The notes beneath the pieces are model-generated. The model searched no databases. It was not told the DNA's origin and was given only the letters and a program-made list of their open reading frames with translations. The translations under genes were made by a program, and so were the position numbers. This document shows, in pieces, positions 12,628 to 62,635 of a stretch of DNA of 64,000 nucleotides. How positions within the stretch are numbered: position 1 is the first letter of the stretch; each line of letters begins with the position of its first letter. Source of the stretch: Escherichia coli (GTDB taxonomy: Bacteria; Pseudomonadota; Gammaproteobacteria; Enterobacterales; Enterobacteriaceae); the NCBI RefSeq assembly GCF_003018255.1, contig NZ_CP027440.1. One strand, written 5' to 3'.

Positions 12628-12703
12628 TCCTCTGTAGTTCAGTCGGTAGAACGGCGGACTGTTAATCCGTATGTCACTGGTTCGAGTCCAGTCAGAGGAG
12701 CCA
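12628..12703 (+). tRNA. asnV: tRNA-Asn (GUU)
   Basis: Identical 76-nt tRNA-Asn sequence. Confidence 0.95.
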
Positions 12704-13755: not shown

Positions 13756-14835
13756 TTAACTGTTCAAATCAGAAGTCGTATTCCCCGGTAGAACAATATT
13801 ACTGGCAGCAAGTTCGCCCATGTTGTTGTATATCGCACAAGCAGCTTCGATGATGGGCATCGCCAGAGCTGCGCCACTCCCCTCACCTAAACGCATCTCC
13901 ATATTGAGATAAGGCTCCAGCCCCAAATGCGACAGCGCTATACGCGCCCCTTTTTCTGCCGACAGGTGAGAAGGAATGAGATACGGTTTGATTGCAGGAG
14001 ACATCTGGCAGGCTGCGAGCGCAGCAGCATAAGAAAGAAATCCATCCAGCAACACGGGTAAACCGCAGGACGCAGCGCCTAACATCACGCCAGCCATTCC
14101 GACCAAATCAAATCCACCCACTTTTGCCAGGACATCAACGCCATCCTGCGTATTTGGTTGATTCAACGTAATCGCCCGGCGCACAACATCAATTTTATTA
14201 GCCAGTTTATCTGTCGGCAGGTTTGCGCCAATCCCAACCACTTCTTCAGGAGCCCGACCAGTGATTGTGCTCACTATCGCCGCTGCCGGTGTCGTGTTTG
14301 CCATCCCCAATTCACCTACACCAAACAGCGTGACACCGTTTTTTGCCAGATCCCGCGTATAGCATATGACGTCCAAAAGCAACGTTTCAGCCTGACGGCG
14401 ACTCATTGCCGGAGCTGAAGCAATATTGTCGCTACCTCGTGCGACACGCATGTTGATAAGCCCGGGGATAGGCTCAGCAGTATCAATACCAACATCAATT
14501 ACGTGGACGCTAGCGCCCGCTTGTGCTGCCAGCACACACACGCCGGTTGTTCCGCGGGTCATATTTTCAGCCTGAATGGCTGTCACTTCTTTTGGGGAAA
14601 TAGCGACCCCTTCCTCCCAGACGCCGTGATCGGCACACATAACCAGTACCGCTTTTTTGCCCACATGCGGTATGCCATTCAACCCCGGCATTCCCGCCAG
14701 TTGTACGCCAAGCGCCTCCAGCCTTCCCAGGCTACCAACAGGTTTGAGTAACCCGTCAATATGCCGTTGTGCACGCGACATAGCGGCAGGATCGATGGCA
14801 GGGATCGTATTCAGTAAATTGGCAAGTGTTTGCAT
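13756..14835 (-). CDS. cobT: Nicotinate-nucleotide--dimethylbenzimidazole phosphoribosyltransferase
   Basis: 359-aa protein of the CobT family; last gene of the cobUST operon. Confidence 0.9.
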
Positions 14836-14846
14836 GTCACGTCTCT

Positions 14847-15590
14847 TTATAGCAGTGCCAGCAGGAAGACCAGTTCACCAAGCTCTATGGCTGCTCCCAG
14901 CGTATCGCCGGTTTGCCCGCCCAGCGTACGTTTGAGAAGCTGACCGAGGATGAAAATCGCCACCATCGTCACCACCATAGCAGCCACACCATGCATACCT
15001 GGCAATAATACAGCAGCAAAAATAGCGGCTAAACCGAGTGTGACGCAGGTTTGTCGCCCATCAATTTTGCCAATGAACACATTGCCAAGCCCTTCTTCCC
15101 GGGCATAACGATGACGATACATCAATAATGCGGCAGTCCCGCGGCTAACCGCGCATGCTGCCGCCAGCGATGCAAGGATCGGTTCGCCACGCAGAGCCAA
15201 TTCGCTTAACACCAGAATCTTTGCCAGTACAACAAAAATCAATGCCAGACCGCCGTGGGTGCCTAAACGGCTATCACGCATGATTTCCAACATGCGATCG
15301 CGGCTACGTGCAGAAAATACGCCATCACAGGTATCGGCGAGGCCGTCCAGGTGGAATCCCCCGGTCATCAGCGCCAGCACCAGCACGCTAAACAGTGCCG
15401 CCAGTGGTACGCCACACCATGCCTGCAGCACCATGAAGACCAGCCCGCTAATCGCGCCAAGCAATAAACCAATTAAAGGAAAAGTAATAATACCGCGAGA
15501 ATAATGCTCGAAATCCAATCCCTGGGACCAGCGACGCGGCACAGGCAGACGCGTAATAAAAGAGAGCATCGCCCAAAATAATTTACTCAT
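14847..15590 (-). CDS. cobS: Adenosylcobinamide-GDP ribazoletransferase (cobalamin synthase)
   Basis: 247-aa membrane protein from [18 protein letters not shown]; its start overlaps the cobU stop. Confidence 0.9.
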
Positions 15591-16132
15591 TTGATTTTTA
15601 CTCCAATACCCGAAACCACCAGCCACACTTCATTTGCCGCAGCGGCCAGCTGCTGATTTACCCGCCCGGCAATATCACGAAAATGTCGTGCCAGACGACT
15701 CTCCGGCACAATCCCCATTCCCACTTCGTTAGTCACTAATACAACCTTTGCGGGGCAACGTTGGCAGGCAGCAATCAACGACTGAATCTCAGCATTAATC
15801 GCCTGTTCCATCGCCTGATAATCCCATTCATCAGGGTCTTTATCTCCGCCATAATCAAACAACAGATTAGTCACCATTGTGGTAACGCATTCCAGCAACA
15901 CAGTTTCATGCGGGTTAATGTCTGCATGAATTAATTCATCAAGATGTTGCCAGCGCTCCACCGTGCGCCAGTGCGCCGGGCGGCCTTGCCGATGATGTTC
16001 TATCCGTGCAGCCATCTCATTATCAAGGATTTGAGAGGTGGCGATATACAGAACCTGTGAAGAGTCCCCAATAAGCGCCTCTGCGTGGCGACTCTTCCCG
16101 CTCCGTGCGCCCCCCGTCACCAAAATCATCAT
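15587..16132 (-). CDS. cobU: Adenosylcobinamide kinase / adenosylcobinamide-phosphate guanylyltransferase
   Basis: 181 aa from [18 protein letters not shown] (P-loop); the listed ORF has an upstream extension. Confidence 0.9.
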
Positions 16133-16264
16133 ACCGACTCCTGATTCAATTGTATGATGGTATTCATTGAACAGAACAATGGATCCCCACCGTTGCTGAC
16201 CGCAAAACATTTACGCGATTAATACTGCGCGTAATACAATTAAAAATCCAGCATTCTCAATCCA

Positions 16265-16771
16265 TTACGAAAGAAGATGGCATTGCGGGATAGCCAGACT
16301 TCCTCGTGTTAACGTACGACAAAATGCGTCATTGACAGCGGTTTCTCTGGAATGACAGATTTCATTCAGATAATGGATTAATGCTACAGCCCCACCAGCC
16401 GGACCAGTCAGCAAACGGGCATTGTGTTCTGCAATCACAATTACCGTCGTTCCTTCAGAATGAGCGAGCCATTCTGGTACGGATATCTCGCTTTCAGCTG
16501 CTATCAATAGCAGCACTGAATAATCGCCATACACATCTGATAACGATTGCACAGGCCCACCGTCAAGAGGCTGGAAATCTTGCTGCCAGTCCTCACCAAC
16601 AAAACAGGTTATTGGCAATATTTCAGCCAGATGTTTCGCCAGGTCCACATCTCCAGATAAGAGGCAAAAAAGAGCTATCGATTCGGGTTTTATCGTTTTC
16701 ATGCCTCTCGCCCTCCACTTAGTTTCCTGTAATGTCGGTCTGGTTGATGAGCCATGAAACAAGATTGCCAC
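16265..16771 (-). CDS. Hypothetical protein (168 codons, GTG start); possibly a decayed cbi remnant
   Basis: Sits where cbi genes would lie between the riboswitch leader and cobU. Two in-frame stop codons separate it from the in-frame upstream ORF 16817-17017. No family recognised. Confidence 0.3.
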   Translation of the reverse strand: MAILFHGSSTRPTLQETKWRARGMKTIKPESIALFCLLSGDVDLAKHLAEILPITCFVGEDWQQDFQPLDGGPVQSLSDVYGDYSVLLLIAAESEISVPEWLAHSEGTTVIVIAEHNARLLTGPAGGAVALIHYLNEICHSRETAVNDAFCRTLTRGSLAIPQCHLLS

Positions 16772-16930
16772 ACCTTAAGTGCAGCCCTGGTGCCTGTCGG
16801 CACTGCGATGAAAGAACTAAATGATGCCGCCATACCCTGATCCTTTCAGGGTGGTAGGGGTATAAAGACGCGCCTGTACTCTACTGGACGCTTCCGGGCA
16901 ACCCACTTCCCACCGAAGTTGTTGGTAATG

Positions 16931-17084
16931 ACTGACTGGCTGGTCTTCTGGCTTAGCGTCATCCTCTCCCGACCTTCCCAATCTCGCGATCAGTGGCATT
17001 TTCGGGTTTGTCAGCATTACAGCAGCGGGGGCTGCGAGGGATTTTCACCCTCTTCCCAGGCACAAATGTGCCACACCTGTCAGC
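16931..17084 (-). ncRNA. Cobalamin (AdoCbl) riboswitch-like leader element
   Basis: Minus-strand sequence contains AGGGTGAAAATCCC, GCAGCCCCCGCTGCTGTAATG, GCCACTG, GGGAAGG and a B12-box-like AAGCCAGAAGACCAGCC, with flanking CTGAC/GTCAG able to form P1; lies just downstream of pocR where the Salmonella cob leader lies. Confidence 0.65.
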
Positions 17085-17186
17085 GTATGTTATGAGCTGA
17101 TTTCACTTTTCCCATAACAGGTAAATAACGTTAATTATTCATTGCAGAGTTTATTTAAACCGTCCTCTTTTTTTGGGGCATTTACT

Positions 17187-18101
17187 CTATACCGTTTCCA
17201 TCGCCGCATTTTCATTCACTTGCTGTCGATACACCTGCGGCGTAACCTGATAAGTCTGACGGAAAACTTTGCAAAAATAACTGGTTTGCGAAAAACCTAA
17301 ATTACGCGCAATGCTGGCGATGCTCCAGTCACTATGGCACAGTAACTCACGAGCGCTGGCCATCCGTTGTTGGTTTACCCACGCATTAAACCCAATCCCA
17401 TGGTATTTCTTAAATAACTTGCTGAAATAATAAGGGCTTAGATAAACGTGCGAGGCGACATCTTCCAGACGCAAATCGTCTGATAAATGCGCATCAATAT
17501 AGCGTAAAGCTTTTTTCATTTTATTGTCGTGGGGACCAGGCGCACGAGTCTGGCGCACCGAATCTGACTGAAATTTGTTCTCTTTAATAACAACAAAATT
17601 GAGTTGTTTTTTGAGGCAATTTTCCACAATCAACTTCAACAAATCAGCAGAGGCCATAACTCTTGAGTAATCCATCTCTGGGACTTTGCGAAATTCATTA
17701 AGTAATTCGGGATCTGCCTGCCAGCAATCATCGACATTCAGAATATCGACCAAATCGACATCATCATTACGCAGACGAACTTGCCCGCACAATACAAAAC
17801 CAACTAAATGTCCGGCGATTACCAGTGGAATAGAGAAATCGGTTAATCCGGCATGACAGCGATAAATACAAGGCTGATCGGATTTAGAGGCTTCCAGGCC
17901 CCCACAACGATCGCTCATGCGACATCGAGTACTCAGCTGAGGGTGTTGCCGCATCATCTGACAAAATGGAGTGAAGTTAAACAGCTCGGAAATTTCATCG
18001 CCGTGAATATTGACCACGACAACCGCAAGGCTGGTCGCCTGCGCAAAATCCTGCGCGATTTTATTAATGAGTTCTGAATTAAGTGTCGCCGCAGAAATCA
18101 T
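17187..18101 (-). CDS. pocR: AraC-family transcriptional activator of the pdu/cob regulon
   Basis: 304-aa protein with a C-terminal AraC HTH domain and an N-terminus close to Salmonella PocR (MISAATLNSELINKIAQDFAQAT...). Confidence 0.9.
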   Translation of the reverse strand: MISAATLNSELINKIAQDFAQATSLAVVVVNIHGDEISELFNFTPFCQMMRQHPQLSTRCRMSDRCGGLEASKSDQPCIYRCHAGLTDFSIPLVIAGHLVGFVLCGQVRLRNDDVDLVDILNVDDCWQADPELLNEFRKVPEMDYSRVMASADLLKLIVENCLKKQLNFVVIKENKFQSDSVRQTRAPGPHDNKMKKALRYIDAHLSDDLRLEDVASHVYLSPYYFSKLFKKYHGIGFNAWVNQQRMASARELLCHSDWSIASIARNLGFSQTSYFCKVFRQTYQVTPQVYRQQVNENAAMETV

Positions 18102-18303
18102 GATAAAACCTCCCAGTTAATTTATTGTTATAGCAAAACAATTGTTTTACATTTAATCTTCACATCATCCTTGATGATTTACTGACGAGAAGCACAAAGG
18201 ACAATAACAAAAGCCTCCGTGAAGCGGGAGACTTTTTAATAAGTTCGGAAAGCAGATCACAAACAGTAAAAAAATAAACGTTTATAACTGCCAGATTATT
18301 TCG

Positions 18304-19113
18304 TTATTCGCTGATTTCTTTAGGCGTTACACTATTGACAGGTAAATTCTTTGCAATGAGATAGCGATAAATCGCCGCACCAACACATGCCCCAATGATC
18401 GGTGCAATAATGGGTACAATGAAATAAGGAATATTGCGTCCACCAGTCATCGCAATTTCCCCCCAACCCGCAAACCAGGTGAAAATTTTAGGTCCAAAAT
18501 CACGCGCTGGATTCATGGCAAAACCGGTTAATGGTCCGGTAGAAGCACCAATAACAGCAACCAGAATACCAATAAGTAAAGGCGCAAGCGGTCCTTTGGG
18601 TACGCCATTACCGTCATCGGTCAACGCCATAATCAACCCCATTAACATGGACGTTATGACCACTTCGACCAACGCAGCTTGCCATACATTAATCGCCGCT
18701 GCCGGATAAGTACTGAAGATACTGGCGAGTTGTAAACTTTCTGCGCTACCACGCACCATATTGTGAGCAGATTCAAAATCGGTAAATAAACTGCTGTAGA
18801 GAGAATATGCCAGAACCGCACCACCAAAGGCACCCGCTAATTGCGCCACACAAAATGGCAGCACTTTACGGGCTGGGAAAGAGGCAAACAGCCACAGAGC
18901 AATGGTAACTGCCGGGTTGAGATGAGCGCCGGAAATACCTGCCGTAAGGTAAACAGCAAGCGAAATCCCTAACCCCCAAATGATACAAATTTCCCACAGT
19001 CCCAGACTTGCCCCGGCAAGTTTCAGGGCGCACAAACAACCAATGCCAAAAAAGAGGAACAGTCCGGTGCCTAAAAACTCGGCAACGCATTGCGCCTTGA
19101 GTGAATCATTCAT
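18304..19113 (-). CDS. pduF: Propanediol diffusion facilitator (MIP/aquaporin family)
   Basis: Two NPA motifs (HLNPAVT, NPARDFGP); probable start MNDSLKAQC, with the listed ORF extended by 13 codons. Confidence 0.9.
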   Translation of the reverse strand: MNDSLKAQCVAEFLGTGLFLFFGIGCLCALKLAGASLGLWEICIIWGLGISLAVYLTAGISGAHLNPAVTIALWLFASFPARKVLPFCVAQLAGAFGGAVLAYSLYSSLFTDFESAHNMVRGSAESLQLASIFSTYPAAAINVWQAALVEVVITSMLMGLIMALTDDGNGVPKGPLAPLLIGILVAVIGASTGPLTGFAMNPARDFGPKIFTWFAGWGEIAMTGGRNIPYFIVPIIAPIIGACVGAAIYRYLIAKNLPVNSVTPKEISE

Positions 19114-40839: not shown

Positions 40840-41105
40840 GGTCATTCTCCTTTACGGTGATAACCGTCGCGTAAGCAAAAAATTGCCCCATTTTTTTGGA
40901 TTCCTCAGCGACAACAACTGTCGATTTTTAGTAAATATCTATCCGGTACGAAGCCCGGCCTCTTGGTATGAATGATTGGTTTGAAGCAAAAAATAACCGA
41001 CGCTAATTAAACGTCGGTTTTTAGTCATTTTTTGACAGCGGCGCATTGTGCCTAAATGGGGGGGAAATGACAAGAGAATGAGAGGCTTGTCATAATAATT
41101 TTTCT

Positions 41106-43328: not shown

Positions 43329-43379
43329 TATGACACGCGTTCAATTTAAACACCACCATCATCACCATCATCCTGACTA
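43329..43379 (+). CDS. hisL: his operon leader peptide
   Basis: ATG ACA CGC GTT CAA TTT AAA followed by seven consecutive His codons, then CCT GAC TAG. Confidence 0.95.
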
Positions 43380-43443
43380 GTCTTTCAGGCGATGTGTGCT
43401 GGAAGACATTCAGATCTTCCAGTGGTGCATGAACGCATGAGAA

Positions 43444-43480
43444 AGCCCCCGGAAGATCACCTTCCGGGGGCTTTTTTATT
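43444..43480 (+). terminator. his attenuator terminator
   Basis: GC-rich hairpin agcccccggaag-atcac-cttccgggggct followed by a T-run, between hisL and hisG. Confidence 0.9.
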
Positions 43481-61784: not shown

Positions 61785-62599
61785 TTGCGTAAGAACTGAT
61801 TATAGATAGATGATAATAATTGTTTAGGTAATAGCCTGACTAATGAACGACCTAAAAATATTAATTTTGCACTTACCCCTTTATTAATGCCTAAATCAAC
61901 AATAAGTTTATAAAGTTCATATTCACTTTTGATATATTTTAATCCTTTTCTTCTATTGATCATTTCTTCGCCGGCACGTGCTAAAACTAATACATCATTA
62001 ACATTATCCATAGCGAAACCTGCGGCATAACAACGAAGCCACAAGTTATAGTCTTCCATAAGATAATGGTGGTTATAACCACCAATCTCAATAATTTTTT
62101 GTTTTCTAAACATTACAGTCATGTGATTAAAAGGATTTCGTTTTGCTATTGTTTTACTAATATTATCATAACCACATGGTACTTTTTTTAATTTACGTAT
62201 ATTGTTTTTTTCTGTAAACTCATCAACTGCCCCGCCAATTATTACTAATTCCGGATTACGAATAAACATCTTTATTTGTTTTTCGAATCGCTCAGGTAGA
62301 CAAATGTCATCAGTATCCATTCGTGCGACCAAATCATTCGAACATGCCTGTAGGCCAGCATTTAATGCCTTACCTAATCCAACATTCTCATTGAGTTCAA
62401 CTATTTTTAAAGGCAATTCTCTATCCCATTTTCTAACTACTCTCCATAATCCATTACTGATCGGACCGTCAATAACTGCAACTACTTCATCGATCATTGT
62501 TTTTTGTATCGCAAGACTTTTAAATGCCTCATCAAGATAAATTTCGTTTTCTTTAAAATATATAGATAATAAAACTGATATTTTTTCTATCTTTTGCAC
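61781..62599 (-). CDS. Glycosyltransferase family 2 (first gene of the O-antigen operon)
   Basis: 272 aa; GT-A-like N-terminus ISVLLSIYF...; the only in-frame start is a GTG at 62597-62599 that lies inside the ops element; contains a DTDD motif. Confidence 0.7.
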   Translation of the reverse strand: MQKIEKISVLLSIYFKENEIYLDEAFKSLAIQKTMIDEVVAVIDGPISNGLWRVVRKWDRELPLKIVELNENVGLGKALNAGLQACSNDLVARMDTDDICLPERFEKQIKMFIRNPELVIIGGAVDEFTEKNNIRKLKKVPCGYDNISKTIAKRNPFNHMTVMFRKQKIIEIGGYNHHYLMEDYNLWLRCYAAGFAMDNVNDVLVLARAGEEMINRRKGLKYIKSEYELYKLIVDLGINKGVSAKLIFLGRSLVRLLPKQLLSSIYNQFLRK

Positions 62600-62635
62600 G
62601 CTACCGCCCTTGGCTTAACAGCTACCAACACACTC
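62597..62635 (-). promoter_or_regulatory. JUMPstart element with ops (RfaH recruitment) site
   Basis: Minus-strand GGTAGCTGTTAAGCCAAGGGCGGTAGCGTG; exact 12-bp ops GGCGGTAGCGTG at 62597-62608. Confidence 0.85.

Follow-up and report, generated by a model that had tools for sequence, protein, structure and literature searches.

Within a 64,000-nucleotide (nt) stretch of Escherichia coli DNA (assembly GCF_003018255.1, contig NZ_CP027440.1; hereafter the window), a cobalamin riboswitch lies on the minus strand between pocR, the regulatory gene of propanediol utilization (pdu), and the cobinamide-salvage genes cobU, cobS and cobT (cobUST), at a locus that holds no intact cbi gene. Comparison across the genus Escherichia shows that the aptamer, the expression platform with its hairpin at the ribosome-binding site (RBS) and the start codon of the former cbiA gene are intact and, judging from the pattern of substitutions, under purifying selection. 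The view that we cautiously prefer is that this RNA may still be a working, cis-acting OFF riboswitch for adenosylcobalamin (AdoCbl), of the Salmonella cob-leader type, that would gate two small open reading frames (ORFs) and, by polarity, the cob genes behind them.

The element had been recognized in an earlier note, made from the letters of the window, through five conserved motifs on the minus strand, all of which are indeed present in the raw sequence at the place indicated. An Rfam 15 scan of the whole window, which included the search with model RF00174 (Cobalamin riboswitch aptamer) that the note had proposed, returned a match running from 17095 to 16921 on the minus strand, with a score of 107.5 bits (E=5.8e-26) that is far above the gathering score of 31.5 bits. 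The match spans positions 1-189 of the 189 in the model and is not truncated; the element therefore sits where it was first placed, although its true extent is slightly wider than the 16931-17084 originally given. The core motifs GGGAA, GCCCCCGC, GCCACUG, GGGAAGG and AGCCAG.AGACC.GCC, besides being visible by eye, all align to the RF00174 consensus, and the B12 box of the window, AGCCAGAAGACCAGCC, aligns to the consensus AGCCAGGAGACCuGCC. The consensus helices can form, with 96 of the 175 nt of the aptamer in consensus pairs, eight of which are non-canonical. Five of the eight depart from canonical pairing in each of the six Escherichia copies compared, namely two in the outer extension of helix P1 and three in 17021-17023/16947-16950, and the remaining three (17007/16968, 17078/16937 and 17087/16928) are lineage- or allele-specific. 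By family membership, the RNA between pocR and cobU would be a true AdoCbl-type riboswitch. The NCBI annotation pipeline, PGAP, already labels a ‘cobalamin riboswitch’ at the homologous E. coli site, and such a feature lay beneath the match in 40 of 40 listed records, sampled evenly down the ranking of E. coli matches.

The history of the locus was reconstructed by comparison with pocR loci from species-representative genomes, among which E69 and SCPM-O-B-8794 were submitted under the name E. coli. In Salmonella, Citrobacter, and Klebsiella the orthologous leader precedes an intact cbiA (459 amino acids (aa) in S. enterica subsp. diarizonae) and further cbi genes. The aptamer of the window is 84-88% identical to those of these full-operon genera, and the leader is collinear with theirs through the RBS hairpin and ATGGCGGCA. 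The alignment with the Salmonella cob leader that had been suggested as a check thus bears out orthology, in synteny as well as in nucleotide sequence, and on these grounds the riboswitch is taken to be the ortholog of the cob-operon leader that lies 3' of pocR in the three genera. Three deletions separate the present arrangement from the full operon. The first removed about 240 nt between the pocR stop codon and the leader, including three conserved blocks, and left a pocR-to-leader spacer of 83-91 nt in all cbi-less Escherichia, from which the upstream promoter and control region proper to a Salmonella-type leader is absent; the missing segment is where the mapped transcription start of the Salmonella cob operon lies. 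The second runs from about codon 20 of cbiA through the end region of cbiF, so that the final 25-30 nt of cbiF now follow some 20 cbiA codons that carry a +2 frameshift. The third extends from about codon 120 of cbiG to just upstream of cobU. The full cbiA-cbiP operon is accordingly not under control here, and what is left of it is a cbiA'/'cbiF chimera and a CbiG fragment; remnants of cbiP between the latter and cobU were looked for by inspection of three-frame translations only, and nothing recognizable was seen.

The spacer itself is of interest as the region through which transcription must pass to reach the aptamer. Its 5' part has diverged by 18-30%, whereas the 3' ~30 nt (from ~17126) are conserved (8.7%); within the latter, GTTATG (17118-17113) pairs with CATAAC (17094-17089) in a leader hairpin. 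Stable structure was sought between pocR and the aptamer and none was found (z about 0), nor was any terminator-like site found there on this strand. In the full-operon genera, the conserved block nearest to pocR, which has been lost from Escherichia, is at most a possible pocR terminator: it can form a hairpin followed by a U-tract in Salmonella and Citrobacter, and fails to do so in Klebsiella.

The expression platform consists of the CAACAACTTCGGTGGGAAGTGGG segment, which is invariant, a variable middle hairpin and the RBS hairpin. In the last of these, ACCCTGA (16852-16846) and TCAGGGT (16840-16834) enclose a loop, AAGGA (16845-16841), that contains the Shine-Dalgarno sequence, directly before ATGGCGGCA. 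Single-sequence folds of the E. coli and Salmonella leaders predict one common architecture, in which a long-range GGUGG/CCACC helix competes for part of the hairpin that holds the Shine-Dalgarno loop. In the RBS hairpin, 95.2% of cells are paired across 27 sequences, with hardly any variation; these figures come from explicit counting of pairs, as the RNAalifold consensus of the platform depended on alignment register, which also invalidated a test of the middle hairpin. The leader thus lies, as in Salmonella, between pocR and the cbiA start codon and carries a hairpin predicted to sequester the RBS. By analogy, the platform matches the Salmonella model of translational control of cbiA, for which Ravnum and Andersson (1997, 2001) reportedly described the RBS hairpin of the cob leader and a translational enhancer.

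The earlier note had left open whether the leader is an inert relic. Such a relic would be a remnant with no function, still intact for want of time. Identical junctions and the same collinear, cbi-less arrangement occur in six lineages (E. coli, E. whittamii, E69, SCPM-O-B-8794, E. marmotae, and E. albertii), and the neighbouring genes of the other Escherichia lineages differ from those of the window by a synonymous divergence (dS) of 0.24-0.60. From these shared junctions it follows that either the deletions predate the Escherichia radiation or the block has spread within the genus. Against that background the aptamer and platform have diverged from the window by 6.1-7.6% in the five other lineages, as compared with 16.7-23.0% for the immediate flanks, a roughly threefold difference (Fisher p 1.6e-5 to 6.8e-9), and the aptamer alone has diverged by 5.7-8.0% across Escherichia species. 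In a sliding window, divergence is 18-30% in the flanks and falls to 3-10% across an island that extends from ~17126 to 16827, with its minimum of 3.3% in the 30 nt from 16856 to 16827, which hold the RBS hairpin and the start codon; the position of this minimum points to control of translation initiation. The aptamers of cbi-less Escherichia score 105.6-112.8 bits, compared with 102-114 bits in the full-operon genera. Moreover, the pair 17058/16941 is U-A in E. coli and in loci L005 and L006 and A-U in L007 and the aligned full-operon genera, a compensatory double change that postdates the loss of the cbi genes; three further aptamer pairs have changed from G-C to G-U. On the E. albertii branch the aptamer and platform changed at 2.7% of sites and the dead cobU gene at 14.6% (p=1e-6). 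That branch was ruled out as a clean neutral clock by its uneven third-position divergence (6.7% in pocR and 31% in cobS, locus L084 against the window), which suggests recombination with a breakpoint between pocR and cobS, and the contrast between island and flanks was used instead.

Behind the riboswitch lie two small ORFs. The one next to it, ORF44, is a 44-codon chimera that uses the original cbiA start codon, and its TGA overlaps the ATG of cbiG' (as ATGA), the fragment left from the N-terminus of CbiG, the cobalt-precorrin-5A hydrolase. Both frames are open, and the overlap is kept, in all six lineages despite 16-28% nucleotide divergence. For ORF44 no codon periodicity was detected (21/18/25 changes by codon position, p=0.56), and the open frame, taken by itself, falls short of significance (P=0.09). 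For cbiG', a star-tree neutral simulation gave P=0.00035 for an open frame in six of six lineages, the single indel across lineages is of 3 nt, changes by codon position number 63/53/91 (p=0.004), and the ratio of nonsynonymous to synonymous divergence (dN/dS, or omega) has a pairwise median of 0.44, each of the five values obtained against the window being lower than 1 (p=0.001-0.05). Because the frame stays open, the codons show periodicity and dN/dS is below 1, cbiG' would therefore be translated and weakly constrained, and the ATGA overlap argues that it is translationally coupled to ORF44. The ‘decayed ORF’ of the earlier note, which is preceded by ORF44, is the N-terminal third of cbiG, and it is not simply decaying, since it is open in every lineage. 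Its match to NCBIfam NF004463 covers positions 1-125 of 351 and scores 67.6 bits (cutoff 546), and it is 43-46% identical to the Salmonella and Citrobacter CbiG proteins. An ORF of 113 aa that begins with ATG lies antisense to most of cbiG' (16381-16722, plus strand), and could contribute to its dN/dS below 1.

How might a riboswitch so placed still act? Transcription would probably enter by read-through from pocR or from a promoter in the 91-nt spacer, the former being proposed because nothing terminator-like lies between pocR and the aptamer; pocR, directly upstream on the same strand, is thus a possible source of read-through transcription. Bound AdoCbl would then favour the hairpin that buries the Shine-Dalgarno sequence, and translation of ORF44 from the old cbiA start would be blocked. 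Through the ATGA overlap, translation of the CbiG N-terminal fragment would drop along with that of ORF44, and the untranslated RNA would be exposed to Rho, with less transcription of the genes behind, which always include cobS and, where they are intact, cobU and cobT. The logic of the Salmonella system, induction together with the propanediol regulon and repression by B12, would in this way be retained with different wiring, and cobUST would very likely have riboswitch-independent basal expression as well. The AdoCbl riboswitch of E. coli btuB has been shown to block translation initiation, with Rho-dependent termination following early in the coding sequence (PMC11162775). By analogy, this mechanism offers a precedent for a translation block combined with Rho-dependent termination at the present locus.

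A number of observations weigh against this preferred reading. With regard to the start of transcription, the sigma-70 match of Salmonella, TTGTCA-16-TAAAAT, sits in the ~240 nt deleted from Escherichia, and a sigma-70 consensus scan of both strands from 15400 to 18400 gave 0 sites where shuffled sequences gave 5.2 (sd 2.9). The RBS hairpin shows no covariation across the 27 sequences, and its support is one of conservation. Midway along P1 the window carries a derived A.A mismatch (17078/16937) at a pair that is canonical in loci L002, L005, L006, and L007, and of the 643 E. coli carriers some 332 have this allele. Relative to pocR dS, aptamer divergence amounts to 0.12-0.15 in cbi-less pairs and to 0.04-0.07 in full-operon pairs, such that the constraint on the aptamer appears roughly twofold relaxed, although its divergence remains about sevenfold lower than the neutral rate. 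No C-rich, G-poor tract of the kind that loads Rho is evident 3' of the start codon, and an untranslated gap of 130 nt separates cbiG' from cobU. In addition, cobUST is intact without a riboswitch in K-12-type E. coli and in Shigella dysenteriae, and in E. albertii the riboswitch is kept although cobT is deleted and cobU decayed; in that species some 520 nt of dead cobU stand before cobS, and the argument from anti-polarity is the weaker for it. Finally, a full-text search of the literature found no paper on this Escherichia arrangement, its selection history or its expression.

These distributions bear directly on the suggestion that cobUST is now under B12 feedback in a rewired circuit. The suggestion is plausible to the extent that cobUST lies downstream on the same strand and that no convincing terminator intervenes: the sole terminator-like site between riboswitch and cobUST, inside ORF44 (16785-16767), was rejected as an intrinsic terminator, its fold being weak and rich in G.U pairs and not conserved (it is absent in L007). 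Such feedback would, however, not be a sufficient explanation: the region of the Salmonella promoter match has been deleted, and riboswitch and cobUST are not retained together in E. albertii, K-12-type E. coli or S. dysenteriae. In E. albertii the aptamer reaches 112.8 bits, and preservation of the platform, ORF44 and cbiG' is as good as in the other lineages, alongside a cobU that is a decayed pseudogene, with fragments at 61-67% identity, frameshifts and 148 gapped positions. Because of these patterns it would seem that retention of the riboswitch is independent of cobU and cobT and, conversely, that expression of cobUST is independent of the riboswitch. A near-invariant block (…TTGAGAATGCTGGATTTTTAATTGTATTACGCGCAGTATTAATCGCG) just after the cbiG' stop may be relevant here. 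Every Escherichia whose cobU is intact conserves it, K-12-type genomes without the riboswitch among them, and it has decayed in E. albertii (29% divergence plus gaps), where cobU is dead; it is a plausible candidate for a riboswitch-independent cobU promoter or control site, although the promoter scan did not pick it out. Meanwhile, cobS is under strong purifying selection in all lineages, E. albertii included (omega 0.01-0.05). In the E. albertii loci (L084-L087, ~3936-5376) an intact cobS, with 93% aa identity, stands beside the decayed cobU and the deleted cobT, implying that CobS is useful without CobU and CobT or that other copies of these exist elsewhere in the genome. On present comparisons the immediate targets of the riboswitch would be the two small translated remnants and not cobU.

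Of the explanations that compete with a working cob switch, that of an inert relic appears very improbable. It could appeal to the absence of the cbi genes formerly controlled, to the missing region with the Salmonella promoter match, to the twofold relaxation of constraint and to the P1 mismatch of the window allele. Yet lineages that share the junctions at a dS of 0.24-0.60 have had ample time for decay, and the aptamer and platform have stayed close to one another while adjacent sequence drifted. Because of this conservation island, the undiminished bit scores, the compensatory change and a rate of change well below the neutral one (as in the ratios to pocR dS of 0.12-0.15), the relic was rejected; nor is there a truncated copy among the 643 E. 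coli carriers (0/643). An unlikely, though less strained, alternative is that the riboswitch has been kept for a role in pocR and pdu expression rather than for the cob genes, for instance as a B12-responsive 3' element of a pduF-pocR transcript, in which ligand-dependent termination or a protective 3' structure would set the level of PocR, or as an insulator against read-through from pocR. It would account for the fact that cobUST does not need the riboswitch, and for its retention in E. albertii irrespective of cobU and cobT but in the company of pduA, pduB, pduF, and pocR, all of which are still present in that species; the 91 nt without terminator-like structure after the pocR stop would also suit it. 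The aptamer and a 1.1-kb segment that includes the 3' end of pocR are each whole in the same number of complete E. coli genomes, 643, although this co-occurrence may reflect adjacency alone, since single deletions remove both. Moreover, a function in the 3' untranslated region or as an insulator would not require that conservation be highest at the RBS hairpin and at the codon where the downstream ORF starts (3.3% divergence), nor that the downstream ORFs be kept open and coupled, and we know of no precedent for such a mechanism in the cobalamin riboswitch family.

It is also conceivable, if quite unlikely, that the selected target is the CbiG fragment itself, as a domesticated and possibly corrinoid-binding small protein under B12 control, with any effects on cobS, cobU and cobT being incidental. 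The fragment is the single intact gene that always lies 3' of the riboswitch; its frame is open in six lineages with codon periodicity and an omega near 0.44, several motifs of the CbiG N-terminus are kept (32 invariant columns in common with full-length CbiG), and an AF2 model of moderate confidence (predicted local distance difference test, pLDDT, 72) has the CbiG homolog 3eeq as its top Foldseek match in the PDB. That structural match is weak, however (E=0.046, template-modelling score, TM, 0.49); seven residues of the GATGIAVRVLAPL motif are missing, the identity to CbiG is low, a Pfam search of the fragment gave no match and a sequence search of the PDB nothing significant. Its omega of 0.44 is far above the 0.03-0.16 of neighbouring genes, most of it is gone from about 88% of complete E. 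coli genomes and truncated forms also occur, and the open frame could be accounted for if translation across the region were all that is selected. A further reading, offered tentatively and with considerable doubt, is that the orphaned riboswitch has been kept genus-wide as a relay: it would gate ORF44, to which a domesticated CbiG fragment is coupled through ATGA, with read-through from pocR driving the module. The fragment might then be a B12-regulated small protein, or a translated spacer whose frame is kept open so that, through polarity, the B12 signal reaches cobS, cobU and cobT. Were this true, a single pduF-pocR-riboswitch-cob transcript would integrate the propanediol and B12 signals.

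Table 1. Features of the pduF-cobT region of the window, with positions and the basis of each assignment
Feature	Position	Strand	Basis
pduF	19113-18304	-	locus gene order
pocR, AraC-family regulator of pdu (in Salmonella also cob) genes	17187..18101	-	NCBIfam NF047788 TransRegPocR, 552 bits (cutoff 500); PGAP at homologous E. coli loci
pocR-to-aptamer spacer, 91 nt	17096..17186	-	alignment with Salmonella, Citrobacter, Klebsiella
AdoCbl (cobalamin) riboswitch aptamer, including B12 box AGCCAGAAGACCAGCC	16921..17095	-	RF00174
Expression platform: CAACAACTTCGGTGGGAAGTGGG, variable middle hairpin, RBS hairpin	16834..16920	-	collinear with Salmonella, Citrobacter, Klebsiella
ORF44, cbiA'/'cbiF chimera	16699..16833	-	alignment to cbiA 5' ends and cbiF/cbiG junction
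cbiG', diverged N-terminal fragment of CbiG, 145 aa	16265..16702	-	NCBIfam NF004463
Near-invariant block (…TTGAGAATGCTGGATTTTTAATTGTATTACGCGCAGTATTAATCGCG) after cbiG' stop	16215..16268	-	conserved in all Escherichia with intact cobU
cobU, adenosylcobinamide kinase/guanylyltransferase	15587..16132	-	NCBIfam NF004469, 246 bits (cutoff 161)
cobS, adenosylcobinamide-GDP ribazoletransferase	14847..15590	-	TIGR00317, 305 bits
cobT, nicotinate-nucleotide--dimethylbenzimidazole phosphoribosyltransferase	13756..14835	-	NF000996, 463 bits

The minus-strand order is pduF, pocR, riboswitch, the two small ORFs, cobU, cobS, cobT, ldtA and tRNA-Asn (Table 1), with pduA, pduB, pduC, pduD, and pduE on the plus strand from 19624. 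Profile-based gene calls thereby agree with the context first described, in which pocR, a riboswitch, remnant ORFs and cobUST are present and the cbi genes are missing; the genome of the window possesses genes of the B12-dependent propanediol pathway and of cobinamide salvage. Among 5,426 complete E. coli genomes 643 (~12%) carry the aptamer, in all 643 as a single, chromosomal, full-length copy that is at least 97.3% identical; that of strain 2014C-3338 matches the window at 100%. In most other E. coli only the last ~280 nt upstream of cobU are left, adjoining IS5 in K-12-type strains. Two E. coli matches, H5 and H28, have different deletions, by which a PduV-family gene directly abuts the 3' portion of cbiG', which shows that the pdu/pocR/riboswitch block has been eroded repeatedly and independently in this species. 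In E. coli 2012C-4221 (L001, 919-2267) the IS3-family element IS1397 interrupts pduC, while pocR, riboswitch, cbiG' and cobUST are intact. A few loci depart from the taxonomic pattern. Escherichia sp. MOD1-EC7003 (L038) has a long, Klebsiella-like spacer between pocR and leader with the conserved blocks, an intact 5' end of cbiA and a PocR that is 85% identical, which would fit a full cob/pdu island gained separately or a wrong genus label. A metagenome-assembled genome named ‘Citrobacter sp.’ (L004, DXKH01000123.1) has an E. coli-type pocR (98-99% identical) and the cbi-less arrangement together with a Citrobacter-type locus (L014), and a 383-nt contig of ‘Streptomyces cahuitamycinicus’ (L065) likewise has an E. 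coli-type pocR at 98-99% identity; both look like contamination in binning or assembly.

Other RNA features were also recorded in the Rfam scan. The small RNA STnc230 is matched at 18162-18245 on the plus strand (76.3 bits), between pduF and pocR and opposite in strand to both, and a match stands at the same place in every scanned related locus that contains the region (Escherichia, Salmonella, Citrobacter, and Klebsiella). Further above-threshold matches were to the His operon leader (43356-43479, plus strand, 131.6 bits), the small RNA STnc240 (40986-41060, minus strand, 69.3 bits) and the JUMPstart element (62597-62635, minus strand, 56.1 bits). Four tRNA matches (236-308, 8398-8470, 10219-10291, and 12628-12700) score 72.6 bits each; tRNA-Asn genes are annotated at homologous E. 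coli sites near nac, cbl, and ldtA.

The arrangement can be set beside several known systems. The Salmonella enterica cob leader is orthologous and likewise 3' of pocR, with 84% aptamer identity, an identical CAACAACTTCGGTGGGAAGTGGG, the ACCCTGA/TCAGGGT hairpin around the Shine-Dalgarno sequence and the ATGGCGGCA start. It differs in having the ~240 nt of upstream blocks with TTGTCA-16-TAAAAT, an RBS hairpin loop that is 1 nt longer than in Escherichia, and cbiA and about 17 cbi genes behind it, where Escherichia has the 44-codon chimera and one CbiG fragment. The btuB riboswitch belongs to the same Rfam family and occurs in the same host genus, but it is a paralogous sequence at another locus that directly controls a transporter gene, and while the element described here is found in ~12% of complete E. 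coli genomes, btuB is, to our knowledge, present in all. In other bacteria, B12 riboswitches upstream of cobinamide-salvage and lower-ligand genes, in operons of the cobU/cobS/cobT type, were reportedly found in the comparative genomics of Rodionov et al. in 2003. B12 feedback on salvage genes would be common to those systems and this one; here, however, the arrangement arose through internal deletion of a de novo operon, with two remnant ORFs and the 130-nt gap before cobU, and control of cobU is putative. In Listeria monocytogenes, Mellin et al. are said to have found in 2013 that a B12 riboswitch controls pocR through an antisense RNA, AspocR. There, too, a B12 riboswitch adjoins pocR and ties the regulation of propanediol utilization to the availability of B12, but it drives a transcript antisense to pocR, whereas that of Escherichia is on the same strand, 3' of pocR, with a translational platform for a downstream ORF.

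The existence of this riboswitch is not in itself new, as its family, its type of mechanism and its automatic annotation were already known. The newer point is that a regulatory RNA appears to have outlived the ~17 genes that it controlled and to have remained under selection genus-wide, together with two translatable gene fragments, and the locus may therefore serve as a tractable natural case of regulatory salvage following the decay of an operon. Since the use of propanediol needs B12, and E. coli is without de novo synthesis, the sensing and salvage of B12 in pdu-positive strains is of practical interest, and the riboswitch is a candidate link in these processes in pdu-positive E. coli.

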